Below, one piece after another: positions 12,386-30,359 of a stretch of 64,000 bases of DNA (position 1 is its first letter; each line of letters opens with the position of its first letter). A program made the translations under genes and the position numbers. The stretch is taken from the IMG/VR virus record IMGVR_UViG_3300029258_005404; one strand, written 5' to 3'. A model generated the notes under the pieces. The model searched no databases. It saw only the letters and a program-made list of their open reading frames with translations, and had not been told where the DNA came from. The stretch is from a virus.

Positions 12386-12792
12386 GGGGGTGTATTGGTT
12401 TTCGACGTGATGAACTGACGTTTCGGCTGCACGTAGAGGATGATCGTTGGCCTCTTAAATCATCGGTCACTATCAATAATTGGCAAATCCAATATTGATT
12501 TCTGCACACTGTTTGGCGCACTTTGCTATGCAAATGCACATGCAGCTGTTGCAGAAACCGCCGTCCTCTAATCAAAGAGGACAAACCCGGCGGCAAGAGG
12601 GTCGATTTCCGCCGGGTCGCCCAAAGGCCCTGGCTCATGAAGATGCTTCGATTCATGAGTGAGATTAGGAGCTGGCTGTCATTGTATTCTGTCTGTGGAA
12701 GATAGTGGCAGTGAGATTAAATCACCAGACTAAACGTGTAGATGTCGGAAAAGATGGCGTTGCGGACAGGGGTTCGACTCCCCTCACCTCCA
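12386..12792 (+). ncRNA. ssrA: tmRNA
   Basis: 5' GGGGGTGTATTGGTTTTCGAC; 3' GGTTCGACTCCCCTCACCTCCA; acceptor GGGGGUG/CACCUCC with G3:U Ala determinant; tag ORF 12482-12571 with its stop in a 7-bp hairpin. Confidence 0.92.
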
Positions 12793-12822
12793 CTATTAGA
12801 GTAGTTTAAAGAAAGGGAAATT

Positions 12823-13188: not shown

Positions 13189-13206
13189 TTGGAAAGAATT
13201 AACTCT

Positions 13207-13278
13207 GGGAGCATCGTCTAGTGGTCAGGATTCCGGCTTTTCAAGCCGTCGACCGGAGTTCAATTCTCCGTGCTCCTA
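13207..13278 (+). tRNA. trnE: tRNA-Glu (UUC)
   Basis: Acceptor GGGAGCA/TGCTCCT, anticodon loop TT-TTC-AA, T arm CGGAG-TTCAATT-CTCCG; CCA not encoded. Confidence 0.85.
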
Positions 13279-13289
13279 TTAAAATTTAC

Positions 13290-28022: not shown

Positions 28023-28071
28023 TATTGAAAATAGTGGTATTGTAGAAGTATAATTTCTCAAACATAAAAAC

Positions 28072-28142: not shown

Positions 28143-29357
28143 ATGGCCAAAGTTAAAAAAGCTAATACTGGCCTTAACAGAACGGTTGTATTTGAAGTCA
28201 GTGTTGCTAATAATAATATTAAAAAACAAGTCATGGCGTCTATAGATAAATATAGAGCAGTGGCACGAAAGATGTATTCATCGGTTGCGATGGCAGCAAC
28301 TGCAGGAGCAACAATCGAAGTAAAAAATGGTGATGTCAGGGTTAAACCTTATACTCAAAATTCAAAAGATATATTGTCAAAAGCATATAATGTGTCTGGA
28401 AAAGCTCAATTTTATGAATTAAGAAATTTCGTATTAAAAGATCATGCTAATACATGGCAATCTGTAATATGGGATTCTTGCAGACTTGCAGTGGCTGGGA
28501 CATGGAATCATGCTGATCCCGAATTTTCTAAAGGTGAAAAGAAGGTTGGACGTGGCTGGTTATCACTCCAAGGCGCAAGAGCTTTTGGATTTTTCAATCG
28601 TTGTGGTATAGGTTTACCAAATACAAAATCTATACAATTTGGTTCAAAAAGTATGACGATGAAATGGGACAAGGAAATTGATGATGTAACATTTTTCGTT
28701 GACAGTAAGCTTCCCGGGAATACATTCTGGAAATTTAAGAACATAAGAGATGGTGTATGGGAAAGGGGTACATGTTACATTGGGTGGAAGTATAAAAATA
28801 TCGGTGGTGGTAAAAAAGTAAAAACACTTTATATAACAATGACCTATAAACTTCCAGAAAATTATTTCAATGAGGAATCAGGTGAAGGTGTTATGATTGT
28901 TGAGTTTACAGATGATCCTGAAAACGGAATCGTCATGTATTCTGATGATAAGTTCCATTATTCCGACAAAATAAGTGTGTATGAGGCTATAGCATGGAAT
29001 AAGCAACTCAATGTTGTAAAGGATTACTACAAAAAACAAAGAGCATCAGTTGGTGGTAGAGATAAGCAGTGGGGTCTCAACCAAAGTCTCATGGTTATTA
29101 GTAACAAAAGTGAAAATTTGACCAAAAGGAGAATTAACGGCAAAAAGCATCGGAATCATATATGGGCCAACAGAATAGTGGCGAGAGTTAGACAATGGGG
29201 TATGGGTGTTGTTGTACTCAAAGATTTTCCTGACGGCCTATTAATTGATCAGGAATGGTCTATGTTTGAGCTTAAAGAAATATTGAAGTACAAACTTAGA
29301 GAAATTGGGTGTGAGTTGAAAACCTATAATACCCCAAAAGAAGAAGAAGCTGCTTAG
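28143..29357 (+). CDS. Compact nuclease-dead TnpB/Cas12 (type V-like) effector, 404 aa
   Basis: TnpB-like order: WED strand RTVVFEV, LYITMTYKLP, RuvC-I-like strand GVMIVEF (no catalytic Asp), bridge helix HRNHIWANRIVARVRQWG, RuvC-II-like VVVLKDF (Glu to Lys), WSMFELKEILKYKLREIG; ends before Zn finger and RuvC-III; directly upstream of a CRISPR array. Confidence 0.75.
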   Translation: MAKVKKANTGLNRTVVFEVSVANNNIKKQVMASIDKYRAVARKMYSSVAMAATAGATIEVKNGDVRVKPYTQNSKDILSKAYNVSGKAQFYELRNFVLKDHANTWQSVIWDSCRLAVAGTWNHADPEFSKGEKKVGRGWLSLQGARAFGFFNRCGIGLPNTKSIQFGSKSMTMKWDKEIDDVTFFVDSKLPGNTFWKFKNIRDGVWERGTCYIGWKYKNIGGGKKVKTLYITMTYKLPENYFNEESGEGVMIVEFTDDPENGIVMYSDDKFHYSDKISVYEAIAWNKQLNVVKDYYKKQRASVGGRDKQWGLNQSLMVISNKSENLTKRRINGKKHRNHIWANRIVARVRQWGMGVVVLKDFPDGLLIDQEWSMFELKEILKYKLREIGCELKTYNTPKEEEAA

Positions 29358-29381: not shown

Positions 29382-29530
29382 ATTAAAAATATAGGCGCTA
29401 TGGAAATTGTGTTATACTAGGCCCTAAAAAAAATATCAGAGTAATTTTTTCATACGAGTGAGGGAAATTGATTAGGCTACAGCGCCATTCTAAAAGATTT
29501 CTGAACTTATTTGTACATAAGGAAAGCTGA
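29382..29530 (+). repeat. Three degenerate CRISPR repeat remnants in register with the array
   Basis: GCGCTATGGAAATTG (unit start 29382), CGAGTGAGGGAAATTG (29443), AAGGAAAGCTG (29502); spacing 61/59/61 nt. Confidence 0.5.
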
Positions 29531-29562
29531 GTGGTGAGATTTTGGATGTTGTATCAATTATT

Positions 29563-29954
29563 GTTTCTTCCGCGCGCGCGAGGGAAACTGGGATTTGCAT
29601 TTAATTTCAACTACCTGCGCAAGTATGCTCCGCGCGCGCGGGGGAAACTGGATATTCGGCCGGGAGAGGGCGAAACAGCTGTAGTATGCTCCGCGCGCGC
29701 GAGGGAAACTGGGTTACTTCGTACCTCTATTCCATCATATCCTAGTATTCTCCGCGCGCGCGATGGAAACTGGGGAAATTTCCAATCATACTGGCGTGAC
29801 CATAGTATTCTCCGCGCGCGCGAGGAAAACTGGGTTTCTTTTATATACAAAAGGGTGCAATATTGTATTCTCCGCGCGCGCGAGGGAAACTGGCCCCCCA
29901 GCATTTGAACTTGCCGTTATCGTTCGTTTCTTTCGCGCGCGCGAGGGAAACTGG
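29563..29954 (+). CRISPR. CRISPR array: 7 repeats of 29 nt, 6 spacers of 31-32 nt, type I-E-like repeat
   Basis: Repeats start at 29563, 29623, 29684, 29745, 29805, 29865, 29926; consensus GTATTCTCCGCGCGCGCGAGGGAAACTGG; six unrelated spacers. Confidence 0.95.
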
Positions 29955-29989: not shown

Positions 29990-30111
29990 CCGGAAATAGT
30001 AAGGTGAACACCCTTGCATTTCTTTACAAGTTACAACTGAGGCTACAGTTTGTCTCGTGGATAGTAGAGTGCTATCTAATGTTCCGATGGAACACCCTCG
30101 CGCGCCTTTTT
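29990..30111 (+). ncRNA. Putative tracrRNA with split anti-repeat
   Basis: CAGTTT (30046-51) and CCCTCGCGCGC (30095-105) are complementary to repeat nt 23-28 and 12-22; two hairpins between them; T5 tract after; 5' end is a guess. Confidence 0.6.
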
Positions 30112-30134
30112 ATTAATAAATCAAAGGATATAAT

Positions 30135-30359
30135 ATGACTAAATTAAAACCGAAAATATGTCCACACTGCGGGGTATTATTTACCCCCGCAGTGCCTGGA
30201 CAAAAATATCACAGTCCAAGATGTCGGAAAAATGATTATAGTTCCAGAAAACAATATTTTCCACGCTTCGGTAATGATGCAAAAATGAGACATGTCTTCA
30301 GAACAGAGAAAAACGTTATAACAAAATACTCAAAGGAGGTAGAATTTGCCAAAAAGTAA
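30135..30359 (+). CDS. Small Zn-finger-like protein
   Basis: CPHCG...YHSPRC motif. Confidence 0.5.
   Translation: MTKLKPKICPHCGVLFTPAVPGQKYHSPRCRKNDYSSRKQYFPRFGNDAKMRHVFRTEKNVITKYSKEVEFAKK

Follow-up and report, generated by a model that had tools for sequence, protein, structure and literature searches.

The window analysed here, a viral DNA stretch of 64,000 nucleotides, carries at positions 30028–30111 of its plus strand an RNA element that we take, with a probability of roughly 85%, to be a tracrRNA-type scaffold for the adjacent nuclease-dead Cas12f-like protein, pairing with the CRISPR repeat in two segments and guiding DNA binding without cleavage. The features of the locus and of the element are collected in Table 1.

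Table 1. Features of the locus, with positions in the window unless another locus is named
Feature	Position	Strand	Basis
Promoter-like site, TTGAAA-18-TATAAT, upstream of effector	28025–28054	+	Consensus scan, 11/12 matches; consensus match only
Effector, 404-aa Cas12f-fold protein without RuvC catalytic residues or zinc-finger/RuvC-III C terminus	28143–29357	+	Family profile, AlphaFold2, Foldseek
Three decayed repeat-like units, in array register	29382–29560	+	Direct-repeat families D2 and D3, 61-nt spacing
CRISPR array, seven 29-nt repeats, six 31–32-nt spacers	29563–29954	+	Direct-repeat analysis
Candidate tracrRNA-type element: 3 hairpins, 2 anti-repeat segments and U-tract	30028–30111 (conserved core about 30038–30111)	+	Covariance model
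Hairpin 0, stem GAGGC/GUCUC, loop UACAGUUU	30039–30056	+	Covariation, minimum-energy fold
Short anti-repeat AR2, CAGUUU, in hairpin 0 loop; pairs repeat nt 23–28 (AAACUG)	30046–30051	+	Matched hexamers
Hairpin 1, GGAUAG/CUAUCU core	30058–30078	+	Covariation
Hairpin 2, UGUUCC GAU GGAACA	30080–30094	+	Covariation
Long anti-repeat AR1, CCCUCGCGCGC; pairs repeat nt 12–22	30095–30105	+	Duplex energy, uniqueness, cognate permutation
U-tract at element 3′ end	30107–30111	+	Sequence
Small zinc-ribbon gene, 74 aa	30135–30359	+	tblastn homologues in related loci
Zinc-ribbon homologues	L003 5361–5600; L011 4338–4559; L012 2532–2729; L018 1390–1596; L020 3730–3924; L022 4127–4345		

An initial annotation had noticed an anti-repeat split into two segments by hairpins, and its motifs lie where it placed them: AACTG at 30035–30039, CAGTTT at 30046–30051, GATAG (30060–30064) with CTATC (30072–30076), TGTTCC (30080–30085) with GGAACA (30089–30094), CCCTCGCGCGC at 30095–30105 and TTTTT at 30107–30111. 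With repeat numbering starting at G29684 (repeat GTATGCTCCGCGCGCGCGAGGGAAACTGG), CCCTCGCGCGC is the exact complement of repeat nucleotides 12–22 (GCGCGCGAGGG) and CAGTTT (30046–30051) that of nucleotides 23–28 (AAACTG). The longer match had been called unlikely to arise by chance, and counting bore this out: its sole plus-strand site is 30095, with 0.07 expected from 100 shuffles. Allowing up to one mismatch, the 64-kb window holds nine occurrences, eight of them the minus strand of the repeats and the ninth the plus-strand site at 30095, which also forms the best repeat duplex (−25.5 kcal/mol) among all plus-strand 12-mers outside the array. The CAGTTT hexamer is unremarkable by itself; its significance rests on covariation in relatives. 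Both hairpins described as separating the anti-repeats are present, but a third (30039–30056) had been overlooked, in which GAGGC (30039–30043) pairs with GUCUC (30052–30056) around a loop containing CAGUUU, as seen in both the covariance model and the minimum-energy fold. Two further details had to be revised. The caveat that AACTG might pair with the same CAGTT finds no counterpart in relatives, and the conserved fold places CAGUUU in the hairpin loop; the short duplex would thus be a pseudoknot, which settles the caveat. The RNA, guessed at 100–150 nt, has a conserved length of about 75–88 nt. The element starts 74 nt past the last repeat and 670 nt past the effector stop codon, with no guide after it.

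The protein that this RNA would serve is encoded by an open reading frame ending 205 nt upstream of the array. Searched as a single sequence, it has no counterpart in Pfam, NCBIfam, PHROGs or the PDB, and we found no relatives in GenBank phages or, by single-protein search, in viral contigs; its Cas12f kinship is visible solely by family profile. An exhaustive HMMER search gathered relatives in 143 clusters at 50% identity, mostly of 360–440 aa, and a 55-member family profile searched against the PDB retrieved OsCas12f (9e-26), AsCas12f (7e-21), SpCas12f1 (1e-20) and nuclease-deactivated Cas12f (2e-16). Single-sequence AlphaFold2 gave an unusable model (pLDDT 32), so we used an alignment-based one (pLDDT 93), for which the best Foldseek matches were AsCas12f, dCas12f and OsCas12f with E values of about 1e-14 (AsCas12f about 3e-14) and in which the TnpB/Cas12f WED-REC-RuvC fold is predicted to be present. 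The RuvC Asp-Glu-Asp triad is absent: the profile alignment places VEF at the RuvC-I aspartate and LKDF at the RuvC-II glutamate, two columns that are not conserved in the family, and the family proteins stop before the zinc finger and RuvC-III. The zinc-finger (TNB) domain gave no Pfam match in the window's effector and weak matches in 14 of 55 family members, the C terminus contains no cysteine motif, and read-through of the TAG stop would add 29 residues with no such RuvC or zinc-finger motif. Given the missing RuvC residues and the early C-terminal end, this is a Cas12f-fold protein without a RuvC active site, and the 'effector activity' that the initial annotation had expected to depend on the RNA is to be read as DNA binding.

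We collected additional related loci via the effector protein. A first covariance model of the element, built from six copies, found it in 22 places, and a second, built from those 22, in 27 places with E < 0.05. Besides the window, the element stands beside homologous effector genes in 16 related loci, or 15 with L020 and L021 merged, as these give identical matches and may be one locus. All matches are on the effector's strand. They usually start 8–60 nt past the effector stop codon, ahead of the first repeat, and multiple copies occur in 8 loci. In the window there is a single match in 64 kb (30028–30115; E = 6e-26 with the first model and 8e-22 with the second). No Rfam family matched the element. 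The tracrRNA identity first proposed from the window is favoured by this recurrence beside Cas12f-like genes on the same strand and by covariation of the stems and of both anti-repeats.

Covariation in homologous loci, which had been put forward as a check, is extensive. In the 22-sequence alignment 15 of 19 stem pairs changed on both sides, 89.8% of cells were paired versus 30–45% when the partner was slid by 1–3 columns, and none of 500 shuffles reached the covariation score, although shuffle and permutation numbers here overstate independence because the loci share descent and their alignment was fitted to the model. For hairpin 0 (21 distinct sequences), all five pairs changed on both sides with 98% of cells paired; the corresponding values were 7 of 8 pairs and 94% for hairpin 1, and 3 of 6 pairs and 77% for hairpin 2. 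Given how the slid controls behaved and how varied the pair types are, three real stems are the only reasonable reading. The pattern can be followed within one locus, L003, a 208-kb IMG/VR genome whose effector is 48% identical to the window's. Its array of 12 repeats of GTTTCTTCCGCGCGCGCGAGGGAAATGGG has a 77-nt homologue of 30035–30111 on either side, one copy between gene and array and the other after the array, just before the zinc-ribbon gene homologue, and the copies differ by compensatory changes in both hairpins (GCTGC/GCAGC versus GTCGC/GCGAC; GGAACC/GGTTCC versus GCTCC/GGAGC).

The anti-repeats follow each locus's own repeat. AR2 and the repeat tail read CAGTTT/AAACTG in the window, CCATTT/AAATGG in L003, L008 and the first array of L022, CCGTTT/AAACGG in L011, CCATTA/TAATGG in L012 and the second array of L022, CCATCA/TGATGG in L017 and L013, and CCGTTA/TAACGG in L023: six distinct hexamer pairs, matched one to one across loci, to which L020 alone adds two more matched pairs (AATATCA/TGATATT and AACATCA/TGATGTT). 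Ten of 12 cognate AR2 pairs are Watson–Crick at all six positions, a value reached by none of 20,000 permutations of the assignments. AR1 likewise changes with the repeat (CCCTC/GAGGG, CCCAC/GTGGG, TCTCCGC/GCGGGGA); its cognate duplexes average −14.2 kcal/mol versus −10.0 for non-cognate ones, and a register-restricted helix score is higher for cognate than for non-cognate combinations (permutation p about 0.001). As far as aligned loci can tell, both anti-repeats are kept complementary to the repeat by co-evolution. The same data bear on whether the element could be an antisense decoy with which the phage disables host immunity by binding host CRISPR repeats of a type I-E-like kind. Phages carry RNA-based anti-CRISPRs, and the window's repeats, 29 nt long with a 61-nt period, have relatives with the core ...CGGGGATAA..., which we take to resemble that of I-E repeats. 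A decoy would not be expected to track its own locus's repeat, including in loci that hold two differing arrays (L022, L020), nor to be always linked to and co-oriented with a Cas12f-like gene in the layout of a type V guide scaffold, and we consider this explanation highly improbable.

Among the repeats surveyed, L011 (4953–5260) has a second array with a longer repeat, GTTTCGTCTCGCGCGCGGGTGTGGGTTGTGAGA, a period of 65–67 and a different tail, for which no matching tracr loop was identified in that locus. L006 and L007 showed isolated matches to the repeat core, which we discarded as unrelated GC-rich DNA.

Folding calculations agree with the tracrRNA reading in most respects. The minimum-energy fold of the element contains all three hairpins of the covariance model, and cofolding with the repeat, another check proposed earlier, retained them and added the 11-bp duplex with a ddG of −22.4 kcal/mol. 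The AR1:repeat 11-bp duplex was calculated at −25.5 kcal/mol, versus −6 to −15 for the repeat's own hairpin. We counted two results against the reading: the fold of the element by itself is not unusually stable (z = −0.9), and the AR1 target is truly mismatched in two of the seven repeats (GATGG, GAGGA). In the repeat variant GGGGG a G-U pair is still formed.

The suggestion that the layout resembles the two-duplex arrangement of Cas12f1 and Cas12k tracrRNAs also holds up at the level of conserved structure, with AR2 predicted in the loop of a covarying hairpin and AR1 at the 3′ end, matching published descriptions. A short duplex adjacent to the guide and a long duplex with the tracr 3′ end imply a plus-strand order in which the repeat handle precedes the spacer. 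The proposed use of the array in the plus orientation is thereby upheld, being backed by this bipartite layout, the co-oriented element and the fused order of scaffold, repeat tail and guide in L013 and L020. In the mechanism we propose, an RNA of about 75–85 nt would fold into three hairpins and pair with the 3′ 17 nt of each repeat. Its 3′ tail, CCCUCGCGCGC, would form the long duplex with repeat nucleotides 12–22, which, being stronger than the repeat's own hairpin, would open that hairpin, while the CAGUUU loop of hairpin 0 would form the short pseudoknot duplex with nucleotides 23–28, beside the spacer. As in type V systems, the spacer would form the 3′ end of the dual RNA. The effector would bind this RNA, probably as a dimer as in Cas12f, and DNA would be bound and not cut. 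We infer that the RNA is produced, processed and bound by the protein, with silencing of the bound DNA as the outcome.

How the RNA would be made is less clear-cut. A consensus scan found no convincing promoter directly upstream of the element, a weak terminator-like hairpin (29999–30017) lies between array and element, and the U-tract, 12 nt past hairpin 2, is not a canonical intrinsic terminator; we counted all three against the tracrRNA reading. The RNA may be the end of one long transcript, possibly an effector–array–tracr transcript stopping at the U-tract, or may have its own unrecognised promoter. One could also take the element itself for no more than a terminator of transcription, or an insulator, separating the array from the open reading frame at 30135, with incidental complementarity to the repeat, since its hairpins are followed by TTTTT. 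However, the T-run stands 12 nt from the last hairpin, where a terminator scan made no call, most family members have no T-run and precede arrays, and two-segment covariation with the repeat is not expected of terminators, which leaves this explanation with very little probability. Across the family, stand-alone copies (window, L003, L008) have the U-tract, which is absent where the element abuts the first repeat.

In the region just upstream of the element, GAACACCCTTGC (30006–30017) duplicates the stretch where hairpin 2 meets the long anti-repeat (GAACACCCTCGC, 30090–30101); within 29999–30025 of the plus strand it forms the terminator-like hairpin and is followed by ATTTCTTT. It may be a remnant of an older tracr 3′ end.

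The position of the element in the window, downstream of the array only, differs from that in most relatives, where it lies upstream, and this too we counted against the tracrRNA reading. A common order (L012, L022) is effector, tracr, array, small zinc-ribbon gene, tracr, array, and L003 has effector, tracr, array, tracr, zinc-ribbon gene. By comparison with these orders the window's copy sits at the position of the second array's scaffold; judged by this synteny, the window is a locus that has lost its first tracr copy and kept its second, which has no array after it. The three decayed repeat-like units between the effector stop and the first intact repeat indicate that the array decays toward the effector gene, and they occupy the space where relatives have a tracr copy; the covariance model found no second, decayed copy between effector and array in the window.

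One rival reading takes the element for a leftover: the scaffold of relatives would stand right before an array and act chiefly in cis on its first repeat, and in the window the second array would have been lost, the downstream copy being a decaying relic or one not used in trans. Its place at the scaffold of a second array (L012/L022 order) would fit, as would the decayed upstream side of the window's array, the fragment like the element's 3′ end at 30006–30017 (direct-repeat family D5) and the way in which elements of relatives abut the first repeat, with the element ending about 12 nt before it in L009, L012, L014, L016, L017, L018 and L022. A relic would hardly retain perfect 11 + 6 complementarity to the locus's own repeats, intact hairpins and an E value of about 1e-22 against the family model. 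As this is the sole copy in the locus, the six guides would have no other scaffold; L003, 48% identical, retains the same downstream stand-alone copy with a U-tract; and the change of AR2 together with the window's unusual repeat tail (CTG) argues for ongoing selection. We therefore hold a leftover scaffold to be unlikely, if somewhat less so than a terminator or a decoy, and keep to the reading as a functional tracrRNA acting on the array.

Some relatives carry the RNA in condensed form. In L013 (1981–2344) and L020 (4139–4480) what remains of the repeat after each scaffold is 12–17 nt long and leads into a guide of about 15 nt, and some of these units form mini-arrays; going by their layout, they represent the same RNA in a natural single-guide form. 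L020 has its long duplex in cis, as a hairpin (CAUAC-UA-GUAUG) that is joined to the repeat tail and can be recognised by eye. In minimum-energy folds of the element plus first repeat from L022, L009 and L012, AR1 was not predicted to pair with the repeat in cis, and we accordingly do not claim that the fused loci fold as natural single guides, L020 excepted.

The window's array has a period of 60–61 nt and is identical in two other public contigs. Its spacers gave no match longer than 12 nt in the window, the whole array found no target in GenBank phages, 22-mers of spacers 2 and 6 found none in IMG/VR, and the array of L003 yielded just a chance 15-mer in its own 208-kb genome; that these searches found no targets we also set against the tracrRNA reading. 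The 29-nt repeats and 32-nt spacers of the window (29563–29954) and of the L018 and L023 arrays presumably follow the type I-E pattern, and relatives' repeats read ...CGCGGGGATAA(C/T)GGG. No cas1 or cas2 was seen near any locus, which, together with the type I-E-like repeats, raises the possibility of spacer acquisition by host machinery.

The small gene after the element encodes a zinc-ribbon protein whose homologues (about 65–80 aa) adjoin the effector, tracr or array in L003, L011, L012, L018/L019, L020/L021 and L022 as found by tblastn, usually just after the array and even in loci whose effectors are only about 30% identical. The protein has the motif CxxCG..F.P..P.Q.(Y/F/C)C...C(R)xN..S.RR.YYPKYG, found no match among Pfam or PHROG families and probably serves as an accessory component. 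We considered whether it supplies the missing RuvC-III Asp and rejected this, as the candidate Asp (KND) reads E, S or R in four homologues; the two most divergent homologues do not align cleanly at KND.

The window contains tRNAs and several matches to PHROGs and has the appearance of a large phage; its locus is also found on a 186-kb contig. ARAGORN reported a tRNA with a CUA anticodon (an amber suppressor, called tRNA-Pyl) at 32644–32718 on the plus strand; since the standard code leaves most nearby open reading frames intact, any recoding of TAG is of limited extent. It also reported a tmRNA-like gene at 12386–12793 (+), near a tRNA-Glu at 13206–13279.

From an anti-repeat seen by eye, the analysis thus arrives at what the alignments define as an RNA family, with a covariance model, three stems and two repeat contacts. 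These data are the information needed for a single-guide RNA, on an approximately 80-nt scaffold, of a non-cutting RNA-guided DNA binder of 404 residues, and so compact a protein–RNA pair would be attractive for gene silencing where cargo size limits. Large phages would carry entire guide systems whose purpose is to bind DNA and not to cut it, with host genes or rival phages as candidates for silencing. As dual-guide, fused and single-guide forms occur side by side, the proposed path from omega-RNA to tracrRNA plus crRNA and back to the single guide becomes directly examinable. Our literature search found no description of a phage dead Cas12f with a bipartite tracrRNA. We tentatively suggest, as a bolder reading that may well prove wrong, that the 404-aa dead Cas12f-like protein and its RNA of about 80 nt are the smallest natural dual-RNA type V DNA binder; that this mostly phage-borne family preserves each step in living loci, from a separate tracrRNA with a full array through a scaffold fused to the first repeat to collapsed single-guide units; and that it adopted type I-E-shaped repeats, with which phages would be able to load spacers through the host's adaptation machinery.

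Among known systems, the tracrRNAs of Cas12f1 (AsCas12f1, Un1Cas12f1, SpCas12f1) share with the window's RNA a place beside a Cas12f-fold gene and an array, the tracr 3′ end in a long duplex, a short pseudoknot duplex beside the guide and a spacer 3′ of the handle, and it is Cas12f1-type effectors that the window's effector family profile matches best. Cas12f1 tracrRNAs are well above 100 nt, whereas the window's RNA has about 80 nt; the window also differs in its 29-nt type I-E-like repeats, in a dead partner without zinc finger and RuvC-III, and in being a phage genome with no cas1/cas2 nearby. The Cas12f1 guide RNA has been described as a long duplex plus a pseudoknot with a short duplex of 5–7 bp (PMC11246509), the whole guide RNA measuring about 200 nt (PMC12255294). 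Cas12k likewise combines a nuclease-dead effector with two duplexes, one joining repeat positions −1 to −5 to an internal tracr segment (nucleotides 87–91), the other joining positions −6 to −14 to the 3′ end of the tracrRNA (bioRxiv 10.1101/2021.07.07.451486); the window's corresponding positions are −2 to −7 and −8 to −18. In contrast, the Cas12k tracrRNA has 218 nt and eight stems, and Cas12k works with Tn7-like transposition genes, none of which occurs among the ten neighbouring open reading frames scanned in the window.

The guide RNAs of dCas12f–sigmaE systems (PMC13472631; 10.1101/2025.06.10.658880) resemble the window's in serving a truncated dead Cas12f with a compact, few-stem scaffold co-oriented with the gene, and the collapsed single-guide units of L013 and L020 are of the same general kind. 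Those systems, for which no tracrRNA was found (Hoffmann et al., Nature 2026, PMC13472631), are rpoE-linked and have no real array and a fixed 14-nt guide, whereas the window has a separate RNA with a U-tract and a 7-repeat, 6-spacer array with 31–32-nt spacers, and the five open reading frames on each side of its effector contain no rpoE/sigma factor or HTH Pfam domain. Hoffmann et al. also mention in passing a separate, array-associated dead Cas12f cluster with covarying non-coding regions (PMC13472631, Extended Data Fig. 1). Like the window's family, it has dead Cas12f by arrays and a covarying non-coding region beside the array; it differs in coming from bacterial genomes such as a Chitinophagaceae MAG and in a putative gRNA upstream of the array, with no bipartite anti-repeat described, and is set apart from the window's family by description only. 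A trajectory from dual-guide through fused to single-guide forms was postulated in the same work (PMC13472631).

The omega-RNA of TnpB, finally, likewise lies on the gene's strand and combines a structured scaffold with a 3′ guide. Its guide-adjacent nucleotides form a pseudoknot with an upstream loop. The omega-RNA is a single molecule, overlapping the 3′ end of tnpB, and its one guide is set by the transposon end, whereas the window's element would be a separate RNA that serves an array and does not overlap the effector gene.
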